A stretch of DNA of 64,000 nucleotides, from the NCBI GenBank assembly GCA_964450885.1, contig CAYVFE010000001.1, positions 65,301 through 129,300 of the forward strand. Reading direction: 5' to 3'. Position numbers and translations under genes: made by a program. The notes below the pieces were generated by a model. That model did not search any database, had not been told where the DNA came from, and was given only the letters and a program-made list of their open reading frames with translations. The DNA comes from an uncultured Gammaproteobacteria bacterium. GTDB taxonomy: Bacteria; Patescibacteriota; Microgenomatia; Levybacterales; GWA1-39-11. Below, piece after piece: positions 12,670-64,000 of the stretch. The stretch's first letter is position 1. Every line of letters begins with the position of its first letter.

Positions 12670-12780
12670 TTTTTATCACCACCTTTGTATTTATCTACTT
12701 ATAGCAACTAAAACGTCCAACCAGGTAATAGTGGTGTAAGAATCCTGCGTGAATGATAATCCTTTTGTTATAATTGCCTC

Positions 12781-17139: not shown

Positions 17140-17198
17140 TTTTCTATTTTATTTTATAAAGTCAAAACTCACAAGCTTTGTTTGCTATAATTGAGAAT

Positions 17199-29824: not shown

Positions 29825-29827
29825 TGT

Positions 29828-30394: not shown

Positions 30395-30398
30395 ATTA

Positions 30399-33927: not shown

Positions 33928-33928
33928 A

Positions 33929-34567: not shown

Positions 34568-34569
34568 AT

Positions 34570-35670: not shown

Positions 35671-35771
35671 ACCATATCGATGTGGTGAATAAAGCGTATA
35701 ACGTGAAAATTTTTAATACAAGCGTATCAGAGTAGAGCAAACTATATGATAATTTGAGGCTAGTGTGAAAA

Positions 35772-37865: not shown

Positions 37866-37866
37866 A

Positions 37867-38241
37867 TTAGATTGAGTTCAGTTTTTCTCTTGTCGCATCA
37901 AGCGTGCTGGCTTCTTGTTTTTGAGTATCATTATCTTTGTATTTCAGATAAGTATCCTTGTAGACGGGCCATCTGTTTGCCAGGTCTTGCAAGAAAAATA
38001 ACATCGAATCTTCGCTATCTATCTTGTCCAGGGACTCAAGTATAAACTCTGCTGAGAATTGAGAGTCTTCATGTGAGAGGGTGCTTGTTTGAAGACCGGT
38101 AAGTAGAGCGTCATAGAGTTCGTTATAGAGATTATTCTTTTGTTCTTCCGAAACGCTGGTATTGTCCATATATAAACAATACGTCAAATCTAGTGGTTGT
38201 GTCAACGAATTAGAACGTAGGGTTGGTGATCTGACCGACAC
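37867..38241 (-). CDS. hypothetical acidic protein
   Basis: 124-aa ORF. Its 1-nt gap to the gene at 35772-37865 is seen; co-transcription with its neighbours is inferred. Confidence 0.35.
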   Translation of the reverse strand: MSVRSPTLRSNSLTQPLDLTYCLYMDNTSVSEEQKNNLYNELYDALLTGLQTSTLSHEDSQFSAEFILESLDKIDSEDSMLFFLQDLANRWPVYKDTYLKYKDNDTQKQEASTLDATREKLNSI

Positions 38242-38506
38242 CAGTGACTGATGCTATCAGATTGAGAATCGCAAAAGACAGTAGTATAAGAAGAAGTCCG
38301 ATTATCGCATAGGTAAGAGTTTTTTTAGCATTGTCTACCTCCTGTGGGTCACCTTTACTGGTCACGAACTTGAACCCCGCAAAGATTATAAGAAAGAGAG
38401 CGACGACGCCCGCAAAGATAAGCGCCCATTGTACGACATTTTTTATGACTATCGGAACACATCTGAGTGTGGCGACATCGCCTTCAAGACAGGAAGCCCA
38501 TTCCAT
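38210..38506 (-). CDS. T4SS pilin-like (VirB2/TrbC-like) protein, paralog 1
   Basis: 98 aa, two hydrophobic helices flanking GDPQEVDNAKK, then IIGLLLILLSFAILN. Confidence 0.55.
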   Translation of the reverse strand: MEWASCLEGDVATLRCVPIVIKNVVQWALIFAGVVALFLIIFAGFKFVTSKGDPQEVDNAKKTLTYAIIGLLLILLSFAILNLIASVTGVGQITNPTF

Positions 38507-38515
38507 ATAGAGTTA

Positions 38516-38944
38516 TTATTGTATTAATTCGTCGAGACGAGGCAGTGTTAGATTTGTAAGTCCTCCTTCTACTCCAAAAACTGTGAGCAGTACATTTAGG
38601 ATGAAGAAGGAAAGAAAGACTACAACAAGCCCTATGACGGCTGCGATTATCTGATTTCTTGCGGCTTCTACTTTAGAAGAATCTCCAGAAGATGTAATCC
38701 ATTTGATACCGCCTATTATAAGCCAGAGTAGAGCGATTATGACAGCTATGACGAAAAAGACTATGACTATGGCACCTATTACTGCGCCGAAATTCCCGTC
38801 ATTTATTTGACAGACGATATCGAACTGTCCGCCGGGGCAAAGGTTGATTGATGATCCTCCTGGAGGGGTTGAGGTCTGAGCATACGCAAGCTTCGGAAAA
38901 AGAAAGTATAACGGTGAAGAAAGGAGAGCAAATAGTCTTTTCAT
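38516..38944 (-). CDS. T4SS pilin-like protein with signal peptide, paralog 2
   Basis: 142 aa. Signal peptide ...KLAYA-Q, Cys-containing head, then SSGDSSKVEAARNQIIAAVIGLVVVFLSFFILN. Confidence 0.6.
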   Translation of the reverse strand: MKRLFALLSSPLYFLFPKLAYAQTSTPPGGSSINLCPGGQFDIVCQINDGNFGAVIGAIVIVFFVIAVIIALLWLIIGGIKWITSSGDSSKVEAARNQIIAAVIGLVVVFLSFFILNVLLTVFGVEGGLTNLTLPRLDELIQ

Positions 38945-38990
38945 AAGGTCTTATTAATTGTTATCAGCTTTTATTTCCTTTGTCAAGAAG

Positions 38991-39308
38991 TTATATGAAT
39001 TTGATGCCAAATATTCCGCCGAGGATGTTTATTATCGCAAACGCAAGAAGGGCAACTATCAGTCCCAAAACCGCAAAGATTATCTGTTTTCTCGCCTCAT
39101 CTACTCTTTGAGGGTCACCATTCGACTGAATCCAGCGGATCCCAGCCCAGATAAGATATCCGAGAGAGGCGAGGATCACGACTATCAAAAAAATCTGCAT
39201 TCCTACAGAGATTATCGTCTCAAGAGTATTTGCACCTCCGCCGGGAACGCCATCTGGGGCTTTCACCTCTCCATATCCTGGAATTTGTAGTTGTGCAAGC
39301 TGTTTCAT
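38991..39308 (-). CDS. T4SS pilin-like protein, paralog 3
   Basis: 105 aa with NGDPQRVDEARKQIIFAVLGLIVALLAFAIIN, the same motif family. Confidence 0.6.
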   Translation of the reverse strand: MKQLAQLQIPGYGEVKAPDGVPGGGANTLETIISVGMQIFLIVVILASLGYLIWAGIRWIQSNGDPQRVDEARKQIIFAVLGLIVALLAFAIINILGGIFGIKFI

Positions 39309-39311
39309 ATT

Positions 39312-40850
39312 TTATGGATTTGGCGGAGGAAACTCTATGTCGGAAACTGTTTCATCATCGACCATATCTACGCTCGTTTCATTTGTATTCTCCGGTTCGT
39401 TAAATCCAGGTATTTGTAGTATATCACCTGCGATAACTTGAAGAATAACGAATGAGAAAATGATAAAAAGTAGACCTATTATTGCAGCTGTGATAATCTC
39501 GCGGGCATGTTTTATCTTTTCGGGATCGCCGCGTGAAACCATGTAGTTATATCCACCGTATATTATAAGAAGCAGGGCAGCCACCCCTGCTATAGAGAGC
39601 ACATATGTGAAGATGCTAAGTACGAATTCGTCTAGGTCAAGCCCTATCGTACCCAGCGCGGTTTCAATCTTTGCGCAGTCGGCAGGATTTGTTACATCGT
39701 TTTCTCTTCCTGGTAATTGATGAAGAGGATCAGGGACGGCACCATCCTTTAGCTCGGCGCACGGGAGTCTGGTACCACCGCTAGAGAGCCCCAGTTCCAC
39801 GAAAAGCTGCGCCATGGAATTTAGATCTTTTCCCTCAGGATCTATTATGGGATCTCCACACACATTTGCTGTAGGGTCACTTCCTGGTATTCCGACATGA
39901 CAGTGAATTTCTGCGTAGACGAACCCCCCAAGACAGTCATCGTAGTTATGGGATTCATTTATCTGCTCACGAAGCCTAATTACATAATCTCCAGCTAGAG
40001 TAACCCCCTCTTCATCCGTCGGGAATACTTTTGTGACCTGTTCTCCTGGAGCCGAGAAGCTTATGCATGACTGGTTGTTTCCTGGATTTAGAATAGCTTG
40101 ATGTAAGACATCATTTCTCATCCCCGGTCCGTCTACGATGATCTGGTAGTTATTCCTATTCTTTTTATCGCCATTTCCGTTATTGCGGATTTTGGGAGAC
40201 GATACATTAACTGTGAATTTTCCACCAGGAGTAAGATTATTGCTGGGGCTTACCGTCATCTCGGGCACTCCATGATTTACAAAAAACCCCGCTACTGTAT
40301 GGAGTATGAATACATCGCCTGCCTTCTGATAAAGAGAGAGGAGATAGACACTGCCTGGATAAAAATAGTCTTTGTCGTTATTTTCACCGTTTTCGTCTCC
40401 TGCGCACTCCTTGCTTCCATTTCCATTAGTAAATCTTTCGGGGGTCTTTAATTTTGAGTCTCCGTCTCCACAGACTATGATGGTCTTGGATTCGTCGTCG
40501 AATTTATAGCGTTGAAGAGTTTTCTCGTCGACCTGGTCGTCTGTGAGTCCGCGTGTAGCTTGTCCTACGTACTCCAGGTTGCCTTCAAATATCCCATCTT
40601 TTACGTCATCATCGTCTATACATAAATCCTGTTCCATACATATATATAGATCGTTAACACTTAGGGAATCGATGAGGTCTCCTTGGAAGGTGACACTTAC
40701 TGTGCTCAGGTAGTCATTTATTTCCTCGAGAGGAGGCTTCACTGTAAAAGTTGATTCCTGAGCATGGGAATTATTCGGAAATAGGAGAAATAGAGAAAAA
40801 AGCGCGAAAAATAAAACAATAAGCCTTCTTGTCATATTCCTATCATACAC
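39312..40850 (-). CDS. large secreted Cys/Asp/Gly-rich ectodomain fused to C-terminal T4SS pilin-like domain (candidate tip adhesin or minor pilin)
   Basis: 512 aa with a signal peptide and a roughly 400-aa ectodomain. C-terminus ...SRGDPEKIKHAREIITAAIIGLLFIIFSFVILQ is the pilin motif. Confidence 0.55.
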   Translation of the reverse strand: MYDRNMTRRLIVLFFALFSLFLLFPNNSHAQESTFTVKPPLEEINDYLSTVSVTFQGDLIDSLSVNDLYICMEQDLCIDDDDVKDGIFEGNLEYVGQATRGLTDDQVDEKTLQRYKFDDESKTIIVCGDGDSKLKTPERFTNGNGSKECAGDENGENNDKDYFYPGSVYLLSLYQKAGDVFILHTVAGFFVNHGVPEMTVSPSNNLTPGGKFTVNVSSPKIRNNGNGDKKNRNNYQIIVDGPGMRNDVLHQAILNPGNNQSCISFSAPGEQVTKVFPTDEEGVTLAGDYVIRLREQINESHNYDDCLGGFVYAEIHCHVGIPGSDPTANVCGDPIIDPEGKDLNSMAQLFVELGLSSGGTRLPCAELKDGAVPDPLHQLPGRENDVTNPADCAKIETALGTIGLDLDEFVLSIFTYVLSIAGVAALLLIIYGGYNYMVSRGDPEKIKHAREIITAAIIGLLFIIFSFVILQVIAGDILQIPGFNEPENTNETSVDMVDDETVSDIEFPPPNP

Positions 40851-40874
40851 TTAATGAAAATTTCATTGCAAATT

Positions 40875-42200
40875 CTACGAACTAAGCTTATAGCCAGTGC
40901 CTTTTATGGTTTTGATGAATGTAGGATTTGCAGGATCAGTTTCAATCTTTTTTCTGAGCCTGTGCATTATCTGATCAAAAGCCTGATCACTGACGCCTTC
41001 CTGGGTCTTCTGGTCCGTCCACACGGCATTTATGAGCTCGTTTTTACTGAGTACCTTGTCTTTATTCTCAAGCATAAATTTTAAGAGCTTAAATTCTGAC
41101 GATGAAAGTAATTGGGTGATCGGATTGTTTGCCTTAAGGATTTCATTTCTCTGGGCATCGTACTTAATCGATTCGTCGACATCGATTTTTTTGCTTTCGA
41201 TAAAGTCTACAAGTAGGGGAATCGACAGTTTTTTTCCTACCACAAGACCTGTTTTTGTGAGATATTTTTCTGAAAGGTTCTCAAAATCTTTATTTTTCAA
41301 TGCCAGCTTTTCGCTGGGAAGCAGGCTTTGCCAGACTTCACCTAGGGCACTTATTATAGTAGGCTTATCGAGGAGATATTTTTTAATGTCAGTTATTTTC
41401 TCGTCTTCCGTGACAAATTTTTCGTAAGCAAGCTTTGTCAGCTTTGAATGCCCCCCTGTTAGGTCCAGAATTTTTTCTGCGGTATCCTTTCCTAGAGACT
41501 TTCTGGACATCTTTTCTATGTATTTTGTCCTAAAGGAGATTGCGATAGGATCATAAATTGCGATATAGATTTCATTTCCTGTAACTATATCTGAAAAATC
41601 AGTAAGTATGTTTATGTCCACGGTTTCATCGAGCGGCCTTTTAAGTGAAAATATGGCTCCAAATCTATACTTTGCCAGATTCCTAAAAGTCTTAAGGTTG
41701 GCAAAGAAGTCTTCGGTCAGGTTAGGTGCGATCGTGTCAAACCTATCAAAGAGCAGGATCAGTGAGAGTTTTTTTTCGATAGTCAGAAATTCAATCGCTT
41801 TTTTTAAGAACTGCATCATCAGAAATTCGTCATTCATCGAGATTGCTTCTTGAAGAAGGGATCTTACCTTCGTGGACTCCTCCAAAAGTTGCCTTTCGCT
41901 CAAAGAAAATGCGATGGAAGAAAAGATGAGTTTTATTATGTCTATGTGATCTCTTCCCTTTGCCTCTGCTGAGTCTATATAGACAAAATGCATCAATTTC
42001 TCGTACGTTTTCAAGTGATATTTTCTGGCGTCTGTGTTGTATGCGAGGAGTCTGAGGAGGTTGTTTTTCCCCGTTCCCGGAAGTCCTATGATTTGCGCAG
42101 AAAGCCCTTTTTTAAGAAAGGTCAGATATTGGTGAATCTCTTTTTCGCGGGAATTTTCAGGATATAACGATTCAAAGTATTTTAGTGGTGTAAGTGTCAT
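40875..42200 (-). CDS. P-loop ATPase fused to C-terminal OmpR/PhoB-type winged-helix DNA-binding domain
   Basis: Walker A-like GLPGTGKNN near the N-terminus. C-terminal trans_reg_C pattern (ELINAVW...DQIMHRLRKKIE...IKTIKGTGYKL). Confidence 0.6.
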   Translation of the reverse strand: MTLTPLKYFESLYPENSREKEIHQYLTFLKKGLSAQIIGLPGTGKNNLLRLLAYNTDARKYHLKTYEKLMHFVYIDSAEAKGRDHIDIIKLIFSSIAFSLSERQLLEESTKVRSLLQEAISMNDEFLMMQFLKKAIEFLTIEKKLSLILLFDRFDTIAPNLTEDFFANLKTFRNLAKYRFGAIFSLKRPLDETVDINILTDFSDIVTGNEIYIAIYDPIAISFRTKYIEKMSRKSLGKDTAEKILDLTGGHSKLTKLAYEKFVTEDEKITDIKKYLLDKPTIISALGEVWQSLLPSEKLALKNKDFENLSEKYLTKTGLVVGKKLSIPLLVDFIESKKIDVDESIKYDAQRNEILKANNPITQLLSSSEFKLLKFMLENKDKVLSKNELINAVWTDQKTQEGVSDQAFDQIMHRLRKKIETDPANPTFIKTIKGTGYKLSS

Positions 42201-42346
42201 GTAAATATAGTATCACGCAAAATCCATTTGTAAGGCAAGTGTTAGATAGACGTCAAGATGATTATAGCTTCATAGTTTATATTGATCACATTATGGAGCG
42301 ATTGACACGTACGCACACGCTGGCATATCCTTTAGAAAGGAGCATT

Positions 42347-45300
42347 ATGGAAACAGGAAATGAAAGAGGGGGAGTACCCCAATCTAGCGACAAGAATAAC
42401 AAGTCAACAAATCTTGAGGCTTCAAAATCCCGGATGGAGCGGATGGTGGATCGTTTTAAAAAAGATAACGAAAAAACTCCGAGTGGGAACGGCAGCCTAA
42501 GAGATAAAGATGAGAATAAGTCTGCAGAAAGACCTTCGTCTGCTACTGTTGGGACAAGTAAGAGTGGTTTTAATCCCGAAAGGTTTAAAGAAAATCCATA
42601 TTTGCATGTGTTGGCGATGAGGGTAAGGGCCGCGGAGCAGGAGGGGAGAATCGACAACAAATTTCTCGATGAGCTTCGGCAGCAGACATACGAAGGAGTG
42701 GGAGAAGGAAGAATTTCGGATAACTGGGCATTTCAGTTCATCAGGGATATAGATAGAAATTATGTTGTGAATGCCAGCATCCAAAAAGAACACGATGACT
42801 CCAAAGAGCTCTCAAAAGATATAGAGGCGATAGTTGAGCAGAGAAAACAAAGAAGGCTTACTGCAGAGGAAATCGAGGCAAGTCGCGTCGCGCTGGAGAG
42901 CGCGTTCGGAAGAAAGCTTACGACATCCGAGCTTGATCGCGTAACAAGAGGTTCAAAAATCACTGAGAGCGGGAGGAATGCAGAAGCCTTTGGGGCTCAA
43001 ATCCAGACGATCGAAAAGCTTGTGGATAACCCTGATAGATTTGCGGCCTTCGAGTCTTCTCTGTCATCCCAAAGTCCGGATCAATTAAAAAGATTGCTAG
43101 GCGGAGATGGCGGGAGGCTGGTGCTGGGAGCATTACTTGGTGATATAGCTGAGAGGAGTAAGTATTTCCAAAGACTTGAGGAGATATTGAGCAAAGATCA
43201 GGCAGGGATGAAGGACGGATTGATTGCCTTATCAAGAGATATAAAAAGAGATGAGCAGGCAGCAAAACCTAAGGTCGACCCAGAAAAAGCAAGGCTTGCA
43301 AGAGAGCAGGCAGAGAAGTGGATTGAGGAGCAGAGGAAAAAACGTCAGGTTACGGCTGAGGAAGTAGATGCGATTCTCGCGAATGCGGAGAGGGGTGTAG
43401 GGCTTATTATGGGAGGCTCCGACTATAACGAGAACGCGGCAAATATAATGGAGCAGGTTGATATGATTTCAGATGAGACTGGGGAGGCTTTCACCAGAGC
43501 GAGGGACCTTTTAGTCGACGACGATTTGGTGAATGTTTTGGCAGAAGAAATATATGGAGTCGATCTTCCAAATATCAGGGCTGAAAAAAGTAAATTTCTT
43601 GATCTTAAAAATATCGATGACCCAGCAGTATTCAAGTCTCGTTACAAAAGTCTTCTTTCAGATCTACTAGCCAGGGCAAACACGGCAGCATCCGACCCAA
43701 GACGTTTGGAGGAAAGAGTGCAGGCTCAAAAAGACGCTGAGGAATTCACTGCAACGGGCGAGAAGACAAAGGGAGGGAAGACCTTTAATTTGCGAGGCCT
43801 TGAAGAAATAGTCAATAGCATATCACCGCCGCGTCCGGGAGAGCGTCCATTCTTTGAGCGCGAGCCCCGAAATATTAAAGAGGTTGCAGCATGGATTATG
43901 GCAGGGGATGATAGAAGCATTTGGGGGCCGGACGGGAGATATCCGATATTTAGCTGGGGTGAGGGGATAAATCCAGAAACAGAAGCAAGAAACGTTGATT
44001 TTCATGCCCAGAACTTAATACTCTGGCTACGCAATAAGTCTTTGGAGCATCATGCCGATAATCCTAACGACCCGCTAAATCTACTACAAGGAGTTGCGAT
44101 AGAGACTCTCTATAAATCGATAAGCATACTCACGATGAAGTATAACAAGCAAAAGTATTTTGCCGACGAAGAGGGCCGCCCGTTATCAAACCTTGCGGAC
44201 GAAGTCATAAATGAGGCTTGGCTTTTTGGAACCAGAAGAAACAAAAACCTTGGTTATATCCAGGCGATGAATAGCGACGAGAAGTTGTTTGAGGCGATAG
44301 TTGAGCTTAGTGGTAAAAATGATCATACAAACGGTAAGACTTTGTCTGGTCACCTTCAGATGGGTGAGAACTTTAGCGATACGGAAGGCAATGAGGACAA
44401 TAAGGTGGGGGATGCGATGCTGGCTGCAAATCTTATATATAGAAACCTTTCTGATATAGAAAAGCTAAGAGAGGTTTTGCCCGAAGGGTCGCAGATGTTA
44501 ACGCTTGAAGGTTTTAAAAAAGCTTCAAGATATTTGAATGAAGAAGGTTTTTCAGAAGACACTAATGGTTATGGAAACCTAAAGATAGAAGGAAATAGGG
44601 TTTATTTTCTGAATCCACAAACTAAGGTTAGGACGGAGATATTTAATAACGACGGAAAGCTTGTAAGTGATGCAAATCTTATAAAGTTTTTGAACTTCTT
44701 TCCGGAGGCAACTCCTCAAGAGACGAATGAGGCATTTGTGAGAGAGCTTGTCAAGCAAAGTATCGCAGGCATGGTTGGGTTTGATTCTGGAATGGAAAGC
44801 GAAAAATACGAGGAATTTATCGCGGAGCGCAAGGAGGCGCTCGGTAACGCTTATAAAGATATAAGCATTGCGGATTATAGGAAGATTCAGAGGATGAATC
44901 TTGAGTGGGCGGAGACGAATTCGTGGGTGGAGCAGCGATGGAATGGAGCTGCAGCCAGAAACGATACAGGATATAGGGGTTATGATGCGTGGACGAAGAT
45001 GTATGCGCAGTATTACCGCGAGCGTCAGTCTGGGGAGGGAACCGCTGGTCCTATCGGTAATCCCCATGATCTGCAGATATTTCGTCTCCTAACGCCCGAT
45101 ATGTGGCTTGCGATACGTACAGAATCCGGAGAGTCCGTCCAGGAAGTCTTTGAAGAGCTTCACATGCACAATCTTAAGCTATATCAACTTGGTCCGGAGC
45201 AAAAAAATGAAAGGGAAGCTATAGAAAATAAAAAGAAAAAAGTATACGAGAAGTTAAAATTTCCTCGGTGGACGGAGTCTGACTGGGCTGCAAACGGAGT

Positions 45301-46099
45301 CAAGCGTCAGGCAGAGGTTTGGCACAATATAATGAACACTGAGGATCTAAAGTTCAACGAGCTTGTGAAAAGAGACAACTGGGGAATACTAAGATATGAC
45401 AGACAGAAATTTGAAGAAGTCGTAAAGGACGACTTTATAAAAAAACGACGCTACGCTTTTTCATCTAATAACGCCATAAATTATGGAGCGGTGACGCGCA
45501 TGAGGGTAAGAAGCAGCTCAGATAAGGCTATAGACGGTTTTGAATTTAAGGATATGTATGTTGGAGAAGCTATGTTCGGAGAGGTAGTGATGGGATCTAT
45601 CAGACGGGATTGGTTCGATGGTAATCTGCAGTACGATGCAGCAGATGAGAATGGGATGGCTGTTAAAAAGAGTGCCCCTAAAAAGGGTGAGAAGTTCGAT
45701 CCAAAAAAACATGGAACTTTTCAGGAATATCTCAACTCGCGCTCCGGTAGGGGAAAGATACTCAAGAATGTATGTAGGGCGGGAATCGCTGCGCAGATTA
45801 ATGCGCATAGACAGCATACGGGCACCACTGAGAGATGGGATGCTGAAACGATTAGAAATCTTTTAGAGTCATTACATACAATGCCACAGTATGAGGAGGA
45901 CCCTGTTACAGGAGTAGAGGTAAAAAACGAACACGCTCAGTTCTTTTCCAAGGAAGACATAAAGTGGATAAGACAGCAGACAAGAACAACCAAGGGGTGG
46001 CTTATATTTGAGGATGCGAGGCATATTGGTTGGGATGCAGCAGCAGAGGGAATTCCAGAGATGTTCAAGATATTCTTCAAGGATGTTCTCTCTTCCTAA
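42347..46099 (+). CDS. very large (about 1250 aa) charged hypothetical protein, candidate secreted substrate
   Basis: Only long plus-strand gene in the locus. No TM or signal peptide. RBS GAAAGGAG before the ATG at 42347. The track ORF starts at 42194 and overlaps the neighbour's start. Confidence 0.5.
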   Translation: METGNERGGVPQSSDKNNKSTNLEASKSRMERMVDRFKKDNEKTPSGNGSLRDKDENKSAERPSSATVGTSKSGFNPERFKENPYLHVLAMRVRAAEQEGRIDNKFLDELRQQTYEGVGEGRISDNWAFQFIRDIDRNYVVNASIQKEHDDSKELSKDIEAIVEQRKQRRLTAEEIEASRVALESAFGRKLTTSELDRVTRGSKITESGRNAEAFGAQIQTIEKLVDNPDRFAAFESSLSSQSPDQLKRLLGGDGGRLVLGALLGDIAERSKYFQRLEEILSKDQAGMKDGLIALSRDIKRDEQAAKPKVDPEKARLAREQAEKWIEEQRKKRQVTAEEVDAILANAERGVGLIMGGSDYNENAANIMEQVDMISDETGEAFTRARDLLVDDDLVNVLAEEIYGVDLPNIRAEKSKFLDLKNIDDPAVFKSRYKSLLSDLLARANTAASDPRRLEERVQAQKDAEEFTATGEKTKGGKTFNLRGLEEIVNSISPPRPGERPFFEREPRNIKEVAAWIMAGDDRSIWGPDGRYPIFSWGEGINPETEARNVDFHAQNLILWLRNKSLEHHADNPNDPLNLLQGVAIETLYKSISILTMKYNKQKYFADEEGRPLSNLADEVINEAWLFGTRRNKNLGYIQAMNSDEKLFEAIVELSGKNDHTNGKTLSGHLQMGENFSDTEGNEDNKVGDAMLAANLIYRNLSDIEKLREVLPEGSQMLTLEGFKKASRYLNEEGFSEDTNGYGNLKIEGNRVYFLNPQTKVRTEIFNNDGKLVSDANLIKFLNFFPEATPQETNEAFVRELVKQSIAGMVGFDSGMESEKYEEFIAERKEALGNAYKDISIADYRKIQRMNLEWAETNSWVEQRWNGAAARNDTGYRGYDAWTKMYAQYYRERQSGEGTAGPIGNPHDLQIFRLLTPDMWLAIRTESGESVQEVFEELHMHNLKLYQLGPEQKNEREAIENKKKKVYEKLKFPRWTESDWAANGVKRQAEVWHNIMNTEDLKFNELVKRDNWGILRYDRQKFEEVVKDDFIKKRRYAFSSNNAINYGAVTRMRVRSSSDKAIDGFEFKDMYVGEAMFGEVVMGSIRRDWFDGNLQYDAADENGMAVKKSAPKKGEKFDPKKHGTFQEYLNSRSGRGKILKNVCRAGIAAQINAHRQHTGTTERWDAETIRNLLESLHTMPQYEEDPVTGVEVKNEHAQFFSKEDIKWIRQQTRTTKGWLIFEDARHIGWDAAAEGIPEMFKIFFKDVLSS

Positions 46100-46114
46100 C
46101 AAATAAGAGAAGCA

Positions 46115-48388
46115 TTACGAACTACTAGTCCGTTCCCTTAAGTTATTTATTGCTTCTAGTCTTATATTAGTTCTTTCTTCATCTGACATGTTCGTTAGTC
46201 CTCGATCATTCTTAATTATTTCTACTTCGTTTGTAATTTCCTCCTCAGTAAAAGCAGATGGAGCAGGTCCGCCTGTTGTTGGGGGCGTTGCAGGCCCACC
46301 TGTGGATGGGTTTCCAGATGCTATTCCAGAGCCTAGCGCAGACCCTTTCCTATTTTTAATAAGTTGTGGGAGTGGTGTACTTAACACTCGTTGAAATCTT
46401 GATAGACGACTTCCCCCTCCAGTTGGAGAGCCACCTGATGGGGGTGGAGTACCGCCGGATGGAGGAGTGGAAGACCCTCCTTCGTCATCTCCCGGTTCTT
46501 CTGGTTTCGGATTATTTCTTTCTGCCTCAGCCAGTAATATAGCTTTTCTCTCTTCGGATTTTTCACGCCTTTTCTTTCTTGCTTCGGGAGTGCTAAATTT
46601 ATCTCGCAGCTTGTTAAGAGTTGGGATTTTTTCCATTCTTTCAGTAAACTTTTCCCCACTCCATGCCTTTAGTCTTCCAGACTCACCAGTATGAGGATTG
46701 GTGTACCATAATGATTTTCTTATTCCTCCGAATGCTCCTCCGACTACTCCGCTTCCTACGCCCAAAGACTTGCCCATGCCACCAATAAGTCCTCCTGTAT
46801 CGGGAGCCTTTAATGCGCTTTTCACGATATTAAGTGCCTCAGGCATTATGAGTACTACTCCAAGCCCTATGATTGAGGCGAACCCCGAGGCTGGGTTGTC
46901 TCCAAGCTCACCCACGAATGGCGGGATAAGTATTTCTTGAGGAGAAGAAAAGGCCTGTTCCTGAATAGATTTACCTATTAGAAAAAGGAGTAGTACTGTC
47001 GGGAATGCTGCGAGATTTGCGATTATCATTCTTAGCCAGGAGCCAATCCCCCCTCCAACTCCAGGAAGAATGCCGGCAAGTATCCAAAATGGAGCAAATA
47101 TCGTCCCTACGAGGACCATGATAAATGCCTTAATAAGCATTATCCATGTCCGAAATAGTGCGGAAAGCACCGCGATAAGTATAACAAGGTATGCTATCAG
47201 AAATGCGACTAGTTTTATGAAGCTTCCAGCAGTAGCAACACCTATTGCTCCGCCAGCTGCACCTCCGACAAGGCTTCCGATAGTTGATCCTGCAAGTGCT
47301 CCAGATCCTACACCAGCACTTACTGCCATAATAGCAGGAATTAACGCTAGACTAGCTCCTCCTGTGGGGAGGGCTAAGAAAGCAGCTACGCCTCCCAAGA
47401 CAAGTCCGCCAATGCCTCCTAGTAGCTTTCCTATCCCGGCGCCGGCTGACCCGCCGATAATTCCTCCTAATGCCTTAGTAAGGAAGTTCCCGAGTCCACC
47501 ACCAAGATTACCGTCAAATATTCCGCCTAGCGCATTTCCAGCGCCCGTCGCTACAGGTTCTGTTATCGCGTTTATTCCACCTAAACCTCCAACCGCATTT
47601 ATGGGGTTAGTATCTATGCTAGGGATAGTTGCAAGTGCTCTTGAGTCAAAGATATTTATGATCAGATACATAAGCACATACATAGTGTCGACCAAAAAAC
47701 CGACTATCGCATACGAAAGAGTGATGAGAACGAGCGCTACAATTATCCGAGGCAGTTGGTTCTGGATTGTCATGACGCTCCTTGCGTCCAGATTTAGTCT
47801 GAACATGATCCCCAGTCCCAGGACGATAAACACTATTAGAAATAGAAAATACGTAATATCTCTAAATACTTCCCAAAGTTTCAGTATGGGCTTCAATCCC
47901 GCAAACCCGACACCCTGAGCATATGCATTCTGAGAGATGCCAAAATTTTCAGCAAGGTAGCCTCCATAGTGAGTTGAAGAAAGTGGGATATTGTAGGTTG
48001 CTCCAATCATATCTCCCGCGACCGCAATAAGCCCTCCATCAGGCTCAGCGTAACCGAGCTTTTTTGTGACGGGATTTACCCCAAGGCATCTACCGTCTAT
48101 GCTGAGTGGGTTAAATCCTGCCATAAAACACGATCCTGCTCCAAGGATTTCTATAAAGACACTCTGGGTATAGGTCGATAAGTTTTGCGGCACATCAGGC
48201 TCTGTGTTAAGAGGCAGCTGTTGCGGATTTTGAATTTGAGCACCCTGAGCTTCTTGTAGATTTTGGTTTTGAATAATTTCATTTGCGGAGGATGAGGATT
48301 CTGCCTGAGCAAATACAGACGACGAAGAAAAATATAGGAAGAACAGGGCACCTAATATAATAAATAAAAATTGCGATAATTTTTTCAT
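46115..48388 (-). CDS. VirB6/TrbL-like polytopic membrane protein
   Basis: 757 aa. Signal peptide, multiple TM helices, Gly-rich stretches, C-terminal Pro/Gly-rich tail. Confidence 0.5.
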   Translation of the reverse strand: MKKLSQFLFIILGALFFLYFSSSSVFAQAESSSSANEIIQNQNLQEAQGAQIQNPQQLPLNTEPDVPQNLSTYTQSVFIEILGAGSCFMAGFNPLSIDGRCLGVNPVTKKLGYAEPDGGLIAVAGDMIGATYNIPLSSTHYGGYLAENFGISQNAYAQGVGFAGLKPILKLWEVFRDITYFLFLIVFIVLGLGIMFRLNLDARSVMTIQNQLPRIIVALVLITLSYAIVGFLVDTMYVLMYLIINIFDSRALATIPSIDTNPINAVGGLGGINAITEPVATGAGNALGGIFDGNLGGGLGNFLTKALGGIIGGSAGAGIGKLLGGIGGLVLGGVAAFLALPTGGASLALIPAIMAVSAGVGSGALAGSTIGSLVGGAAGGAIGVATAGSFIKLVAFLIAYLVILIAVLSALFRTWIMLIKAFIMVLVGTIFAPFWILAGILPGVGGGIGSWLRMIIANLAAFPTVLLLFLIGKSIQEQAFSSPQEILIPPFVGELGDNPASGFASIIGLGVVLIMPEALNIVKSALKAPDTGGLIGGMGKSLGVGSGVVGGAFGGIRKSLWYTNPHTGESGRLKAWSGEKFTERMEKIPTLNKLRDKFSTPEARKKRREKSEERKAILLAEAERNNPKPEEPGDDEGGSSTPPSGGTPPPSGGSPTGGGSRLSRFQRVLSTPLPQLIKNRKGSALGSGIASGNPSTGGPATPPTTGGPAPSAFTEEEITNEVEIIKNDRGLTNMSDEERTNIRLEAINNLRERTSSS

Positions 48389-48492
48389 GGCAGGCCTACA
48401 ACTTAGTATGACAACTTATATAGTCAAAAATCAAGTTTTACTGGATTTTTAACCTTGACTTTGCTGGCCTCAAGGCTTAGTATTGAGTTGTC

Positions 48493-49107
48493 ATGATAAG
48501 GCTAGGAATTATCGCTACTTTACTGCTTATTCTGTTTTCTTCTCTCTCAATTAATGTCTATGCACATCCTGGACACCTAGAGCACGACGGCATTGCGCAA
48601 GCAGAATCAGAAGAACCCCTTTCCGATGAAGAATCTACAGAATCGGCGCAAATGGAAGTGGAGCAGAATGTGCAGTACGAACTTGCTTATCCCGGGATGC
48701 TCCCTGATAATCCTTTGTATTTTCTAAAGACGATGCGCGATGCAGTCGTAAGATTCTTGATTTCTGATTCGCTAAAAAAGGCAGAGTTTAATCTACTTAC
48801 TTCGGACAAGAGGATCTATGCAGCGCAGCTTTTGGCGGATAACGATAAGTCAGAATTGGCACTGGAGACCCTTTTGAAGAGCAACAATTATATGCATGAA
48901 GCAGTAGTTTCTCTTTCAAAAGCGAAAGAAGAAGATAAGAATATCAATCCGATACTCTCGAACCTGAAAACCTCCGTGAAAAAACACAGAGAGGTCGTTT
49001 CACGACAAATTGCGCCTAATATGCCGGAGAATATGAGCGACATGATAAATAGAGAATTAGATCGTCTTGAAGACATAGAAAAATCGGCGGATAATCTTGC
49101 CTCATAA
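48493..49107 (+). CDS. secreted DUF5667-like protein
   Basis: Signal peptide and a YPGMLPDNPLYFLK motif common in CPR DUF5667 proteins. Confidence 0.4.
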   Translation: MIRLGIIATLLLILFSSLSINVYAHPGHLEHDGIAQAESEEPLSDEESTESAQMEVEQNVQYELAYPGMLPDNPLYFLKTMRDAVVRFLISDSLKKAEFNLLTSDKRIYAAQLLADNDKSELALETLLKSNNYMHEAVVSLSKAKEEDKNINPILSNLKTSVKKHREVVSRQIAPNMPENMSDMINRELDRLEDIEKSADNLAS

Positions 49108-52245: not shown

Positions 52246-52432
52246 ATAGCTAGTTGCTAGCTATGTGAATTTAAGATAATATATCAAAGGTTAATTTAGG
52301 TAAGTAGGGTGTGATTCCCTCTCAGTGCCGCTACCGTAAAGACGGAAAACGAATTAACTTTTACGCTCGAGCAAGCATTTCTACAACCTAATCCAGACTG
52401 CAGAAATCCTTCTCGAGTAGAGGGATTTTTTT

Positions 52433-52987
52433 ATGGCTATTTATACAAAAAAAGGAGATAAAGGTAGGACATCTTTGGGAAATGGTGTTCGTGTGTGGAA
52501 AGACAGCAGGCGTGTGGATGCCTACGGTACAATAGACGAATTAAATGCGCTGCTGGGAGTTATCGAATCAGAGTTAAGCCTAATCAATAGGAAGTATGCA
52601 AAGTACGTAAGAGAAATCATAATAACTGTCCAGAACGACCTCTTTTGCATCGGTTCTTATCTTTCTAATCCTGCAAATCGTGAACTTATCTCCCATCTGT
52701 CTGAAAACACTCTAGAGTTTGAGAAAAAAATAGATGAGATGACGCAAAAGCTTCCTGAGCTCACGAACTTTATTCTTCCTGGAGGGACCATCGTTGGTGC
52801 GAATCTGCAGATAGCAAGAGCTGTCAGTCGTCGTGCTGAGCGAAAGCTGATAAGTCTTATCCGCCGCGAGAAAGTTAATCCTGATGTGGTCCAATATATA
52901 AATAGACTTTCAGATCTATTTTTCACGCTATCGCGTTTCACGAACTTTGAGGCAAAAAAGAAAGAGATTATCTGGAAAAAAAGATAA
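52433..52987 (+). CDS. PduO-type ATP:cob(I)alamin adenosyltransferase
   Basis: N-terminus MAIYTKKGDKGRTSL...RVDAYGTIDELN, the canonical PduO/MMAB signature. Confidence 0.75.
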   Translation: MAIYTKKGDKGRTSLGNGVRVWKDSRRVDAYGTIDELNALLGVIESELSLINRKYAKYVREIIITVQNDLFCIGSYLSNPANRELISHLSENTLEFEKKIDEMTQKLPELTNFILPGGTIVGANLQIARAVSRRAERKLISLIRREKVNPDVVQYINRLSDLFFTLSRFTNFEAKKKEIIWKKR

Positions 52988-54393: not shown

Positions 54394-55104
54394 ATGAAAG
54401 AGCTGCTTCTCTCGATACTTTTCCCTAAAAGATGCGTTAACTGTAAAAGATTCGGCAAATACATCTGTGATGACTGCTTTGCACGCATTCACTATCTGGA
54501 TTTTTCAAAGTGCATAGAGTGTATGAAGCCATCGGTCAGCAGTCTCACACACGCGAAGTGCAAGAGGAAAAATAGCATGGATGGAGTTTTTGTTGCAGTA
54601 GAGTATAAAAGCGTAATCAAAAAGGCAGTGTACTCCTACAAATACGAGCCCTATATTTATCATCTGGGCGAAATATTCTCTAGGCTGATGTATGAGTCTC
54701 TCGTTCAAAATGAAGTAGCGCAAAACGTGCTTTCGGTATCCTCTAATGTGTGGATAACTTGTGTACCGCTTCATGAAAAGAGGCTGCGAAAAAGAGGATA
54801 TAACCAGAGTGAAATATTAGGAAGGAAGTTGTCTGAAAAAATGAAATTACGCTTCAATTCGAATCTTCTCATACGCACTAGAAATACTATTGCCCAGTTC
54901 AAATTGAAAAAGGAGGAGAGGGCAAAAAATATAGTAGGTGCATTTGAGATCACGCCTAAATATAGTGAAAAAATGCGCGGGAAAACAATCTTTATAGTAG
55001 ATGATGTCTTTACGAGTGGTGCGACATTGCGTGAATGTGGAAAACTTTTGAAGAAAGCAGGCGCGAAAGCGGTCTACGGCCTCATATTCTCCATGGAACA
55101 GTAA
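54394..55104 (+). CDS. comFC: ComF family protein (phosphoribosyltransferase domain)
   Basis: N-terminal Cys4 (CVNCKRF...CDDC). C-terminal PRTase motif IFIVDDVFTSGATL. Confidence 0.7.
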   Translation: MKELLLSILFPKRCVNCKRFGKYICDDCFARIHYLDFSKCIECMKPSVSSLTHAKCKRKNSMDGVFVAVEYKSVIKKAVYSYKYEPYIYHLGEIFSRLMYESLVQNEVAQNVLSVSSNVWITCVPLHEKRLRKRGYNQSEILGRKLSEKMKLRFNSNLLIRTRNTIAQFKLKKEERAKNIVGAFEITPKYSEKMRGKTIFIVDDVFTSGATLRECGKLLKKAGAKAVYGLIFSMEQ

Positions 55105-58877: not shown

Positions 58878-58930
58878 ATGGCTAATTATAGCAAATCAGC
58901 CGGTTATTAGCTGGGATTTTGGAGTTATGG

Positions 58931-60625: not shown

Positions 60626-60667
60626 GCAACTTAATTATAACAGGGATAATAAAGTCGTGCGGTGAGG

Positions 60668-60739
60668 TGGGCATGCTTGGAATTGAACCAAGGACATCCA
60701 TTTTATAAGAATGGCGCTCTACCCCTGAGCTACATGCCC
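60668..60739 (-). tRNA. tRNA-Ile (anticodon UAU)
   Basis: Reverse complement folds as GGGCATG-TA-GCTC-AGGGGTA-GAGC-G-CCATT-CTTATAA-AATGG-ATGTC-CTTGG-TTCAATT-CCAAG-CATGCCC-A. Anticodon TAT. Confidence 0.65.
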
Positions 60740-60785
60740 GCAATAACCCAAAAGTTATACGTTGCTTATTATAACAAAGATTTAT

Positions 60786-63173
60786 CTATCTGCGAGGGAC
60801 CCCTGGAATAGAGCTTGATGTAGGCGGTGGAATATCCAGGTCTGATCGGGAATTTATCTCTTCTTCGACGATATCCCGCGCCCGTCCATACTTGAGTCTT
60901 GAGAGCTCTTTAATAAGCTCTGCGACTCTAGGGTTTTCTCTTGCTTTCTCTTCCTCTATATCACGAGTCAGATCCATAGAGAATGGGGTTGTTGGCTCTC
61001 CTCCTACAAGAGTTTTTACATATGCATGGAAACGTTCGACATTTATAAGGTCTGCTTCTGCAAATGTGGGTTGAAATTCATGTTGAAGATAATTTGCATC
61101 ACTGACACCTACTCTAAACGAAGCTATAGTTCCTACATTTCCAAATATGGCATTTTTTACTTCTTCATCAATTTGTCCTATGAATTGATTTGCGACTGTC
61201 AAATTTAGTCTATATTTTCGCGCCTCAGAGAGTATTTGCGCAAAGTCGGGGGTAGCAAAATTCTGGAACTCATCGACATAGAGGAAGAAGTCACGGCGTT
61301 TATCCTGAGAAATATCTTGTCGACTCATGGCAGCAACTAGGAGTCGTGGTACCATAAGAAGCCCTAAAAAGCTTGAGTTTTCTTCTCCAATTTTACCTTT
61401 TGCGAGGGAAATTAGAAGTATCTTACCTTCATCCATGACTTGCCGGAAATCAAATGAGCTCTTGCTTTGTCCTATCATATTCCTCATCATTTTATTTGTG
61501 ACGAACCTTCCGAATTTAGAAGTTATATAGTCTAGGACTTCGGATTTATGAAAGTCTGATGTCTGTGCGATTTGATCTGTCCAGTAGCGTCTAATGATAG
61601 GATCAGACACTTTGGGTAGGAGTTTTTGAACATAGTTTTGGTCAGTAAGCACGCGAACAAGTTCAACAAAAGTCGTACCCGGTTCGCTCATAACAGTAAG
61701 CATCGCATTGCGGACTGCATGCTCAAATCTAGGACCAATTATCCCGGTTCTTTGTGGGTCATAGAGCTTGTAGAAAAGATTGATGATAGAACCAGTGACA
61801 AAATGTTTTTGGTCCTCAGTCTCAGCGTCAAGCATATTTATACCCATAGGACGCTCTGTGTCTGATGGGTCAAAAAGGATTACGTCCTCAGCTCTTTCAG
61901 GTGGGATAAGAGGTAATATCTGATCGATAGTATCATGTGGATCTATAAAACATACTCCCTCACCATTTCTGATGTCCTGTAGGATCATATCTTTTAGAAA
62001 TTCTGATTTTCCGACACCAGTTTTTCCTATGATGTACATGTGACGTCTTCTGTCATCGCGTTCGATAAATACTTTTTTCTCCTGACTTCTATATATGCTT
62101 TTTCCAAGATACAGTCCTGTCGTAGGCATTTTTGCAGGCGCTGGTGCAGTGCGGGCTGCAAGCCAGTTGATATGAGGATTTTCGATTGCCTTGTTAGGGA
62201 AATGGAAAATTGCTGCTAATTCTTCGGGATTGAGAACAGACCCTTTTTTGAGAAGCGGGACATGGCGGTAGATAAAATCTACCATCATCATGCCTTTAAA
62301 AAATTTCGGCGAGTATTTAGTGAATGAATTGAAAGACGAAAACTGAGTGAAGGCACCAACTATATTTCCTAGGTGTGCCTCAGCTGCTTCTTTGCTGGAT
62401 GACACAGTGACTATCCTTATATAAGTGGAGAATCCTGGTTTTGAGATCTTATTTTCGATTGCTTCAAGCTCTTTCTGGTCTGTTGAATAACTTGCGGTCT
62501 CGGGGTCTGCTTCATTTTTCTTTTCTTTTGAGATGTGGGCCCGTCCAGCCTTACTCCATTTGGAATCTGCGGGAGTTATTAAGATTTGTATCGCAGCAGA
62601 TTCTCCTTCCTGCATTTTTCCTAAAGTACTGACGACAGTTGCCATAGGATCTACTGCAAGGTCCTTATAGAATTTGATCGGCAGATAATCTGATTTTTTG
62701 AGATGAAGACTTGTGAAGGCTACTTTTCCGTTGTCGGTCTCGAAGATATTATAATCTTCCATTTCCTGAATATGGGCGTCGGGGTAAGCTCCATTTATCT
62801 GTTTTTCAACCATATCTTGAAGTTTTCTGGGAACTCCAACATAAAATCTGATGTCTCCGGGCTTTGCTACAATCTCGAAAGTAATGCTATCTGGAACCTT
62901 TGAAAAACTCAGCATGCCCTCAGCTGTAGAAAGAGATGCAAAACTTGAAAAGAGCTGTTCTGCCGCATCTATCTTTATTTCGTTATCGCGGGGTAATTTT
63001 ACTTCAATAAGGACAGATTCAAGCGATCTTTTATGCCTGTCTCGGGCCCGAAACCAGACTCCGGACCCGAAAACTGATGCTATAGCACCAGCAACTATAA
63101 GACCGGAGATAATAATCCCGATTACTAGCGTTTGAATAAGTTGGATTATGCCTGAAGCATCTAGTAGTTCCAT
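60786..63173 (-). CDS. VirD4/TraG-like type IV coupling protein (T4CP) ATPase
   Basis: 795 aa. Two N-terminal TM helices, Walker A GKTGVGKSEF, Walker B FFLYVDEF, and a C-terminal RKYRLNLTVANQFIGQ block typical of T4CPs. Confidence 0.7.
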   Translation of the reverse strand: MELLDASGIIQLIQTLVIGIIISGLIVAGAIASVFGSGVWFRARDRHKRSLESVLIEVKLPRDNEIKIDAAEQLFSSFASLSTAEGMLSFSKVPDSITFEIVAKPGDIRFYVGVPRKLQDMVEKQINGAYPDAHIQEMEDYNIFETDNGKVAFTSLHLKKSDYLPIKFYKDLAVDPMATVVSTLGKMQEGESAAIQILITPADSKWSKAGRAHISKEKKNEADPETASYSTDQKELEAIENKISKPGFSTYIRIVTVSSSKEAAEAHLGNIVGAFTQFSSFNSFTKYSPKFFKGMMMVDFIYRHVPLLKKGSVLNPEELAAIFHFPNKAIENPHINWLAARTAPAPAKMPTTGLYLGKSIYRSQEKKVFIERDDRRRHMYIIGKTGVGKSEFLKDMILQDIRNGEGVCFIDPHDTIDQILPLIPPERAEDVILFDPSDTERPMGINMLDAETEDQKHFVTGSIINLFYKLYDPQRTGIIGPRFEHAVRNAMLTVMSEPGTTFVELVRVLTDQNYVQKLLPKVSDPIIRRYWTDQIAQTSDFHKSEVLDYITSKFGRFVTNKMMRNMIGQSKSSFDFRQVMDEGKILLISLAKGKIGEENSSFLGLLMVPRLLVAAMSRQDISQDKRRDFFLYVDEFQNFATPDFAQILSEARKYRLNLTVANQFIGQIDEEVKNAIFGNVGTIASFRVGVSDANYLQHEFQPTFAEADLINVERFHAYVKTLVGGEPTTPFSMDLTRDIEEEKARENPRVAELIKELSRLKYGRARDIVEEEINSRSDLDIPPPTSSSIPGVPRR

Positions 63174-63176
63174 AAT

Positions 63177-63452
63177 TTAAAAATTTTGAGATAGTGGATT
63201 TTTTTGGAGATCGGATGATTGTGACGCTTTTTCGTCAATTTCAAACTGCTCTTCGTTTATAGAATCATCTGTAATAAGCACACTATCTCCCACGTGTTCT
63301 GCTCCAAAATCCTTTAAATCCTCATGTAGGTGGTGGCTGTCTACGTGCTCATTGTTAAAGGAAATAAACTCATCGAGTTCTATATCAATCTCAGGAATAA
63401 AAATATCTGATGTGTATTCAATGTGAGGATACAGTTTTCTAGGCTGATTCAT
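63177..63452 (-). CDS. small acidic protein upstream of VirD4-like gene
   Basis: 91 aa, acidic (E/D-rich). Ends 3 nt before the T4CP gene start. Confidence 0.35.
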   Translation of the reverse strand: MNQPRKLYPHIEYTSDIFIPEIDIELDEFISFNNEHVDSHHLHEDLKDFGAEHVGDSVLITDDSINEEQFEIDEKASQSSDLQKNPLSQNF

Positions 63453-63798
63453 ATATATAATGATAACATAGTAGGCGTTTTATTAGAAGTAAAGTGGATT
63501 ACAAAAAAGTACGAATTATCGCCTATTCTTTGTTATAATACTTTAGCGAAATTGTGAAGACTTTATACTCGCAATTCAAAAAAGTAAATTGCTCGTTTTG
63601 CAGTCTAAATTTCGCTTCTTAATCCCGATTGGCGGGATTACAGCAAAATCTCGTAGAGATTTTGAGTCAGAAAAAGTCCGTTAGAGTTTGGCATTTTGAT
63701 TTAATGCAAACTCCGAAGGAGTTTGAGTAAGGAGAAATACTCTGATAATTTGAAGTTTCGATTTATCGAAGCGAAAAGTTAAAGAGTAATTTTGACGA

Positions 63799-63887
63799 GG
63801 AGGAGTCGCATAGAGGCCCATTGCGGGGGTTTGCTAAATCCCTGAGTCGCAAGGCTCGCGCAGGTTCGAATCCTGTCTCCTCCGCCA
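63799..63887 (+). tRNA. tRNA-Ser (anticodon GCU)
   Basis: Acceptor GGAGGAG/CTCCTCC, anticodon loop TTGCTAA, long variable arm, T arm CAGG-TTCGAAT-CCTG, encoded CCA. Confidence 0.75.
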
Positions 63888-64000
63888 CGTCGCAAGTGGA
63901 CAACTGCTTTTTGTCTCTTGTTCCTTTATTAAAAATGCTAAAGCATTTTTACAAATTGCTGCGCAATTTAATAAAGAGGCGTATTTGTTATATAGCTGTA

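Follow-up and report, generated by a model that had tools for sequence, protein, structure and literature searches.

Patescibacteria, for which candidate phyla radiation (CPR) is another name, depend on a host, and in the one genetically tractable species a relaxase-less type IV secretion system (T4SS) is essential for epibiotic growth. Which cargo such a T4SS handles, and which ATPase selects its substrate, is the question on which findings about these ATPases bear. Here, we analyzed a DUF8128-type ATPase of 795 amino acids (aa), which the list of open reading frames (ORFs) places at 60786..63173 on the minus strand of a 64-kb stretch of DNA (contig CAYVFE010000001.1; the whole stretch is called the window below). 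The window covers an origin-proximal part of the chromosome in a genome of Candidatus Levybacteria (Patescibacteria/CPR).

The closest described systems are the chromosomal T4SSs of Patescibacteria. Two papers (PMC12102498; PMC10633639) describe them as relaxase-less and MPF-FATA-derived, with VirB2-like pilins, a location near dnaA and a T4SS coupling protein (T4CP) gene distant from virB4. According to the survey of 3,035 Patescibacteria genomes by Quinonero-Coronel et al. 2025 (PMC12102498), VirB4 is found in 2,417 of them and forms a clade nested in MPF-FATA, relaxases are nearly absent, and T4SS genes often adjoin dnaA. The same survey counts 5,713 VirD4-like homologues across 2,918 genomes and finds only 148 of these homologues near virB4, so that a coupling ATPase "stranded" away from the T4SS is the norm. 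For S. epibionticum, Wang et al. 2023 (PMC10633639) report a T4SS cluster without recognisable coupling or relaxase proteins. Neither DUF8128 or a VirB4-like N-domain, nor a coupled acidic partner, nor tRNA synteny is described in the passages of the two papers that were consulted. Full-text searches of the literature found no paper mentioning DUF8128 and nothing relevant on DUF87-type coupling proteins beside Replic_Relax.

An earlier note on this DNA had described a VirD4-like ATPase lying apart from the main T4SS locus, with an acidic 91-aa ORF and a perfect palindrome upstream. The ATPase, the acidic ORF, the tRNAs, the intervening core genes, the T4SS block and the palindrome all lie where that note had placed them. 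Its specific claims add little, the split layout being already published and the palindrome not being a conserved control element. What is new here is the predicted VirB4-like head of the ATPase, its plasmid context, its coupled partner and the deep tRNA synteny around it. These findings bear on the divergence of VirB4 and coupling proteins. They also turn the ubiquitous "T4CP homologue" into a putative VirB4-headed motor, for which docking by the N-domain, binding of the partner and joint occurrence with VirB4 serve as handles.

Predicted VirB4-like head on a coupling-protein ATPase

From its N terminus, the ATPase comprises a transmembrane (TM) helix, a domain resembling the N-terminal domain of VirB4, and a HerA/FtsK-superfamily ATPase of the coupling-protein lineage. 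The hydrophobic helix spans residues ~6-45 (63039..63158, minus strand) and precedes the basic sequence RARDRHKR; the AlphaFold2 (AF2) model has a helix at residues 6-51, and one hydrophobic segment starts at residue 8. Presumably this helix is the single membrane anchor, the remaining protein being cytoplasmic. The DUF8128 domain follows at residues 46-350 (62124..63038, minus strand). Motifs, profiles and the AF2 model delimit the P-loop ATPase domain at residues 351-735 (60969..62123, minus strand), with an all-alpha insertion at residues ~453-581. Its Walker A (GKTGVGKS, 62004-62027) and Walker B (LYVDEF, 61266-61283) motifs, both on the minus strand, are invariant in 58 homologues. The protein thus has the mark of VirD4-type T4CPs, that is, intact Walker A and B motifs in a nucleotide-binding domain (NBD) of the HerA/FtsK/TraG-clade P-loop type. 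The two-helix transmembrane domain (TMD) that leads straight into the NBD in T4CPs is not present: a globular domain of 300 aa comes after the single helix.

In the AF2 model of the whole protein (predicted local distance difference test score, pLDDT, 78.7), a single long N-terminal helix is followed by an alpha/beta domain and then by a RecA-like domain, which carries the all-alpha insertion at 453-581. In a Foldseek search, the best match was full-length TrwK/VirB4, aligned co-linearly over ~880 columns with an E value of 2e-14. Cagbeta (including the Cagbeta-CagZ complex 8dol), HerA, TrwB, the VirB4 C-domain and DotL came next, the coupling-protein structures having E values of 1e-8 to 1e-10. 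When the domain model was used, the top 13 matches were all TrwK chains. Because Foldseek ranks TrwK/VirB4 first, the model assigns DUF8128, that is, the N-terminal ~300 aa, a VirB4 N-domain-like fold.

Sequence profiles gave a complementary view. The ATPase scored 23.3 bits against Pfam TraG-D_C (cut-off 22), 20.7 bits against TrwB_AAD_bind (cut-off 20.5) and slightly over the cut-off of DUF87. Its top NCBIfam matches were TraD, CD1115 VirD4-like and TrbC, at 32-49 bits against cut-offs of 250-800; the CD1115 model, aligned to residues 366-683, was the best end-to-end model for the ATPase domain. With Pfam scores marginal and NCBIfam scores far under their cut-offs, the label "VirD4-like" rests on marginal matches. 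A 58-sequence profile run against PDB sequences found DotL and TrwB at E ~0.005-0.007, as the sole P-loop translocases with E<0.01, together with weaker, non-translocase matches. Collectively, structure and profiles show that, within the HerA/FtsK superfamily, the ATPase half falls in the branch of the T4SS coupling proteins. The earlier "VirD4-like" assignment therefore stands for the lineage of the ATPase, while the VirB4 N-domain fold predicted for the first 300 aa had been missed.

As for the VirB4 family, the fold of the N-terminal domain was found and recognition by VirB4 sequence models was not. The NCBIfam model VirB4_plasma scored 19 bits (cut-off 590) and the VirB4 model TIGR00929 gave no match. 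Aligning the ATPase with the window's own VirB4 by hhalign paired the ATPase domains only, at 58% probability, and no sequence similarity between the DUF8128 domain and the N-domain of the window VirB4 was detectable by hhalign.

The protein thus compares in two ways with known motors. It shares a P-loop domain with an all-alpha insertion with the VirD4-type coupling proteins TrwB of R388, DotL, Cagbeta and TraD, from which it differs by its single TM helix where they have a two-helix TMD, by the 300-aa VirB4-like domain between anchor and ATPase and, in CPR, by lacking both a relaxase and linkage to a T4SS. With VirB4/TrwK of R388, it shares the order of an N-domain followed by a RecA-like C-domain. 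Unlike VirB4, however, it is barely matched by VirB4 hidden Markov models (HMMs), its gene is not beside VirB3-like genes, and a bona fide VirB4 is already present in the T4SS cluster.

A vertically inherited Patescibacterial core gene

Homologues of the ATPase are abundant: more than 5,321 were found, and there were 22,765 clusters at 50% identity with E<=1e-3. The 120 nearest homologues are 68-93% identical, and all have precomputed PF26449 (DUF8128) matches on their first ~350 residues; it is on these that the PF26449 membership of the window protein rests. Their named sources are Candidatus Levybacteria or Patescibacteria. In 80 genome loci from Microgenomates and Paceibacteria-type genomes, the ATPase is 58-89% identical to that of the window. 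These data show that the ORF at 60786-63173 is the Levybacterial member of a very large Patescibacterial family that joins DUF8128 to a P-loop ATPase.

Two side observations concern this family. A second class of paralogues (P0199-P0273), ~1,300-1,510 aa long, carries the same ATPase domain at the C terminus, 45-52% identical to query residues ~315-776, after an unrelated N-terminal region of ~980 aa; this class may explain why PMC12102498 reports about two T4CP homologues in each genome. Besides, many public records of metagenome-assembled genomes that hold the locus (L002-L075) are titled "uncultured Gammaproteobacteria" or "uncultured Pseudomonadales". The locus being CPR-specific, these titles appear to be mislabelled taxonomy.

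The gene order tRNA-Ser(GCU), partner ORF, ATPase, tRNA-Ile(UAU), SpoIID-domain protein, bPH_2, DUF5657, 608-aa protein and SmpB is kept in Levybacteria. In the window, the ATPase gene is flanked by tRNA-Ile(UAU; gene anticodon TAT) at 60666-60739 on the minus strand, which has its own extended -10 box at 60768-60776, and by tRNA-Ser(GCU; gene anticodon GCT) at 63799-63887 on the plus strand. The tRNA-Ile(UAU) gene, whose anticodon is uncommon among bacteria, adjoins the ATPase across Levybacteria and many other Microgenomates, though its orientation flips (loci L001-L080).

With a tRNA gene on either side, the ATPase could be the remnant of an integrative element, conjugative or mobilisable, that had used a tRNA gene as its insertion site, and the presence in relatives of small GIY-YIG ORFs and of inverted tRNA-Ser genes does mark the place as recombinogenic. 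We regard this origin as effectively refuted. The order of tRNA-Ser, partner, ATPase and tRNA-Ile is kept throughout Levybacteria; the flanks contain core genes and no integrase or relaxase; and the GC content of the ATPase gene region (0.40-0.41) matches the remainder of the window (~41%). In 84 related loci, no relaxase or T4SS gene was found within 6 kb of the ATPase. The loci are 58-93% identical across the class and retain synteny with flanking tRNAs and core genes, which shows that in the Levybacteria lineage the ATPase is a vertically inherited chromosomal core gene without a relaxase and not a recent plasmid import. The system had been called domesticated, and its chromosomal location and vertical descent agree with this, which is already published as a general rule for Patescibacteria (PMC12102498).

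Relatives in the coupling-protein slot of monoderm plasmids

Searching plasmids with tblastn yielded 403 records from Bacillus, Streptomyces, Staphylococcus, Clostridium, haloarchaea and Sulfolobus, 55 of which cover at least 80% of the query. A B. subtilis plasmid protein, WP_121549396.1 (NZ_CP032854), is 27% identical over 736 aa, N-domain included, with an E value of 1e-56. Its gene lies directly upstream of a Replic_Relax (PF13814) relaxase-like gene, which is followed by genes for TcpC, TcpE and a TcpF/VirB4-like ATPase, and a 64-kb B. subtilis plasmid has the identical arrangement. Because the plasmid homologues adjoin Replic_Relax and TcpC/TcpE/TcpF, DUF8128 ATPases are shown to hold the coupling-protein position in monoderm conjugation modules. 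In CPR, the copies have descended without a relaxase and with a membrane anchor added.

The Bacillus proteins, annotated as "DUF87 domain-containing protein" (WP_121549396.1; WP_144625398.1 in NZ_OX419581), are homologous to the window ATPase over their full length and share its Walker motifs, but they lack its N-terminal TM helix. They also end in an acidic, D/E/S-rich C-terminal tail of 140-170 aa (L085 7887-10547; L086 8830-11571), and no coupled acidic upstream ORF was seen next to them, whereas in CPR the acidic polypeptide is a separate upstream ORF. Judging from composition and position, the plasmid tail and the CPR ORF may be related by a split or a fusion.

The ancestry of the two window motors can be considered in this light. 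The window VirB4 is of the CD1110 family. CD1110 and CD1115 are C. difficile locus numbers a few genes apart, which we take to belong to one monoderm conjugative element. Because the best end-to-end model for the ATPase domain is CD1115, and its nearest relatives outside CPR are monoderm and archaeal plasmid proteins, the sequences of VirB4 and of the ATPase point to monoderm conjugation ancestry and not to an independent origin from a diderm plasmid.

A fast-evolving acidic partner is coupled to the ATPase

The 91-aa partner ORF (63177..63452, minus strand) contains 22 D/E residues for 5 K/R and has an isoelectric point (pI) of 4.3. It appears in the ORF list and has homologues at the same position in loci L081, L082, L001, L002 and L073. 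Its stop codon lies 3 nucleotides (nt) before the ATG of the ATPase, and the two genes form a translationally coupled operon. No Pfam or NCBIfam family was found for the 91-aa protein, and a word-indexed search of a large database with it returned only itself. Its identity to the partner of L081 is 56%, as compared with 93% for the ATPases, and falls to 36% in L082, 45-47% in L001, 41-43% in L002 and 26-32% in L073.

In 73 of 81 loci, the ATPase is closely preceded by an ORF on the same strand, so that the acidic partner pointed out earlier is real and conserved beside related ATPases. Among these 73 upstream ORFs, 58 lie within 12 nt of the ATPase or overlap it and 56 have a pI <5.5; their median length is 169 aa and their median net charge -10. 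Short Levybacterial partners have a common pattern in the family alignment, IEY..A.IPE...HHE.LD...GE.V...QFE. Partners from other lineages have a common C-terminal module, EVEsYLqKVE...IVIADG...VVLPIT...SIRWLVEWSxKIxKMFxGKVIYR, for which no Pfam family was found; an HMM of this module matches longer Levybacterial partners weakly (E 0.0015). Altogether, a fast-evolving, usually acidic and coupled partner goes with the ATPase in most related loci.

Small proteins also accompany coupling ATPases in the pairs CagZ-Cagbeta and IcmS/IcmW-DotL and at the TraM-TraD tail. By analogy with such pairs, we infer that the partner is an adaptor or a regulator of the ATPase.

Putative motor of the T4SS or exapted translocase

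We propose, tentatively, that the ATPase and its acidic partner are a T4SS-docked motor that selects or energises a non-relaxosome substrate, and give this slightly less than an even chance. The ATPase would form a membrane-anchored hexameric motor and would dock, through its VirB4-like N-domain, on an inner-membrane platform of the VirB3/VirB6/VirB8 type, as analogous motors do. The platform would belong to the T4SS that is encoded 12-31 kb away beside dnaA and has no relaxase. Once docked, the motor would energise or gate the passage, between epibiont and host, of a protein or nucleic-acid substrate that is not a relaxosome, and the partner would assist as CagZ does for Cagbeta, or IcmS/IcmW for DotL.

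A different possibility, which we take seriously while considering it somewhat improbable, is that the DUF8128 ATPase and its partner are an exapted, T4SS-independent membrane translocase with a core function, for instance in taking up or handling nucleic acids, in transactions of the chromosome or of cell division, or in building the envelope. The nearest relatives outside CPR speak against it, being part of conjugation modules beside a relaxase-like gene. So does the predicted head of the protein: the VirB4-type N-domain, as in R388 TrwK, is the part that contacts the inner-membrane platform in solved T4SS structures. Moreover, no partner from an alternative pathway is conserved next to the ATPase outside Levybacteria.

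Several observations nonetheless weigh against a motor of the T4SS, and most of them would fit an exapted translocase. Hexamer formation, docking and the role of the partner are analogies, and a physical or genetic link to the T4SS stays putative. In none of the 84 related loci was a virB4 or VirB6-like gene found within 6 kb of the ATPase, in line with the rare linkage to virB4 (148/5,713) in PMC12102498. The same survey places T4CP homologues in ~500 more genomes than VirB4 (2,918 as compared with 2,417). It also reports that the S. epibionticum homologue is non-essential where the T4SS genes are essential, and that it may be exapted. As to the partner, the HMM of the non-Levybacterial module did not detect the short, window-type protein, which shows no detectable sequence homology to that module.

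Conservation and context point the same way. Within the same loci, the ATPase is 72-89% identical, as compared with 60-80% for SmpB and 36-83% for the SpoIID protein; being conserved beyond SmpB suits a housekeeping role no less than one in secretion. The ATPase has a putative promoter and a partner to itself, and its conserved neighbours in Levybacteria are envelope or core genes, namely those for the SpoIID-domain protein, bPH_2, DUF5657 and SmpB/tmRNA.

A broader proposal would add DUF8128 ATPases to the VirD4 and TcpA types as a third architecture of coupling proteins, one that retains the VirB4 N-terminal domain and would be a living VirB4-VirD4 intermediate; in Patescibacteria it would have become, with its partner, a near-universal core machine independent of conjugation. 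We think this unlikely. If true, a motor of this third architecture could bring nucleic acid or protein from the host across the membrane of the epibiont.

The upstream region has a conserved putative promoter and a strain-specific palindrome

On the minus strand, the extended -10 box TGTTATCAT (63460..63468) lies 7 nt upstream of the partner ATG and forms a putative leaderless promoter of the partner-ATPase operon. We aligned the window with L081 (ATPase 93% identical), L082 and L083 (90%) and L001 (89%), and a single common block was left upstream, ~70 nt next to the partner ATG. This block reads TTTTTTGTAATCC...CTATGTTATCATTATA.ATATG and contains TGTTATCAT. A second extended -10 box, TGTTATAAT (63531..63539, plus strand), faces away from the operon, toward a hairpin-rich spacer and tRNA-Ser, and is kept in L001, there pointing at a GIY-YIG ORF.

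The motif TGnTAT[AC]AT occurs 12 times in the window as compared with 5.5 expected, a count reached in none of 100 shuffles. Six of the 12 copies lie 6-8 nt before an ORF ATG (7322-7330, 12766-12774, 17183-17191, 58885-58893, 60634-60642 and 63460-63468). Because a 6-8 nt spacing between box and ATG is the signature of leaderless transcripts, this pattern suggests that leaderless mRNAs are widespread in this Levybacteria genome. No Shine-Dalgarno sequence accompanies the boxes that lie 6-8 nt before an ATG.

The palindrome TAATCCCG-ATTGG-CGGGATTA is an exact 8+5+8 inverted repeat at 63620-63640. It had been put forward as a candidate operator for a dimeric regulator. Such a regulator could be, for instance, the winged-helix protein encoded at 40875-42200, and would control the operon of the ATPase and perhaps the T4SS cluster as well. 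A perfect inverted repeat in a divergent promoter region and a Trans_reg_C protein encoded in the T4SS cluster do invite this idea, but what we found makes it very improbable. The palindrome has no second copy in the 64-kb window with up to 3 mismatches, and no half-site (up to 1 mismatch) was found at 42150-42400, 48380-48500 or 38240-38520, in the other T4SS intergenic regions. Half-sites occur 5 times in the window as compared with 1.6 expected; 2 of these are the palindrome itself and the other 3 lie inside ORFs. The palindrome is also absent from 80 related genome loci and has no aligned counterpart in L081, L082, L083 and L001, relatives with ATPases 89-93% identical that keep only the 70-nt promoter block. 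Its position, ~160 nt upstream of the operon promoter and ~80 nt downstream of the divergent one, is another point against an operator. OmpR-type winged-helix proteins, besides, usually bind direct repeats.

The surroundings of the palindrome are more telling of RNA structure. Two more perfect hairpins of unrelated sequence follow it, at 63644-63664 and 63707-63725, a pattern typical of RNA structure. A lone perfect 8-bp hairpin is unremarkable, because the 64 kb hold 14 raw (11 distinct) as compared with ~8 raw in shuffles. Here, three perfect hairpins of at least 8 bp fall inside 106 nt (63620-63725) of a lineage-specific spacer of ~250 nt (63545..63795), which extends to the 5' end of tRNA-Ser and is not conserved in L081, L082, L083 or L001. 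Over the whole 346-nt upstream non-coding region, folding was more stable than in shuffles (z = -4.6 for the plus strand and -5.6 for the minus strand), the plus-strand fold being 12 kcal/mol more stable than the minus-strand fold. An Rfam covariance scan of 63400-64000 gave, besides the tRNA, no E value better than 0.26, all matches being far under their gathering scores. We conclude that the palindrome is one hairpin of a strain-specific spacer and not a conserved control site. It would lie outside the control of the operon, and its hairpin would probably be transcribed on the plus strand, in the 5' leader of tRNA-Ser.

Other identities of the palindrome and spacer were considered. Neither strand has a T-run after the palindrome and a scan of the spacer found no terminator-like site, which rejects an intrinsic terminator. 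A repeat or miniature inverted-repeat transposable element was discarded, blastn against the window and all loci having found no copies. Nor is the spacer a decayed GIY-YIG gene, the 86-aa GIY-YIG ORF of L001 leaving no tblastn trace in the window. The sole other exact 21-mer in the metagenome collection lies on an unrelated contig (L084 178-198), flanked by A7 and T7; to judge by these flanks, that copy is probably a bidirectional intrinsic terminator and a chance match.

In L081, L083 and L002, tRNA-Ser genes are on the operon strand and abut the conserved block. The window and L001 have tRNA-Ser(GCU) inverted and a spacer present, the L001 spacer encoding the 86-aa GIY-YIG protein. From this arrangement, the tRNA-Ser side looks like a local hotspot for selfish insertions. 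As to the spacer of the window, we suppose with low confidence that the tRNA-Ser transcript has it as a structured 5' leader, or else that a rearrangement left it behind as inert filler.

Small GIY-YIG ORFs were seen at 5304-5564 and 4779-5000 in L001, 5209-5465 in L003, 5201-5454 in L018, 6830-7072 in L032 and 10037-10282 in L033. Some are split into two tblastn segments, and those of L001, L003 and L018 are near tRNA-Ser. On the far side of tRNA-Ser in the window, 43 nt past the gene, a perfect 9-bp hairpin, TAAAAATGC-TAAA-GCATTTTTA (63930-63951), may be the terminator of the tRNA-Ser transcript.

The T4SS block and neighbouring genes

In the window, the cumulative GC skew has its minimum at dnaA (26160-27497) and dnaN (27628-28722). 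The T4SS cluster (29231-48388) begins ~500 nt past dnaN, and being beside dnaA/dnaN it fits the origin-proximal placement given for Patescibacteria in PMC12102498.

The cluster encodes the CD1110-family VirB4 (31642-33927, NCBIfam match), a PrgI/VirB3-like protein (34570-35670), two T4SS_pilin proteins and, at its end, a polytopic VirB6-like protein (46115-48388). The winged-helix protein at 40875-42200 (441 aa, Trans_reg_C match) is, from its domain content, a candidate regulator of the cluster; its OmpR/PhoB-type DNA-binding domain is at the C terminus only, and no receiver domain was detected in it. A 1,301-aa ORF without a family match (42194-46099) also lies inside the cluster; its GC skew is strongly positive (+0.23 to +0.25) and it is divergent from the pilin genes.

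The ATPase gene is 12.4 kb beyond the end of the VirB6-like gene (48388). Between the T4SS block and the ATPase are genes for NrdR, a class II-type ribonucleotide reductase, an adenosylcobalamin (AdoCbl) riboswitch with a cobalamin adenosyltransferase, a ComFC-like protein, tmRNA and SmpB. The riboswitch, of the AdoCbl-II type (52288-52360), scored 37.4 bits, barely over its gathering score, and comes directly after the B12-type ribonucleotide reductase; the cobalamin adenosyltransferase (52433-52987) is downstream of it. The ComFC-like protein (54394-55104), with a double zinc ribbon and a phosphoribosyltransferase domain, is encoded between the ribonucleotide reductase block and tmRNA. ComFC is a component of competence and DNA uptake.

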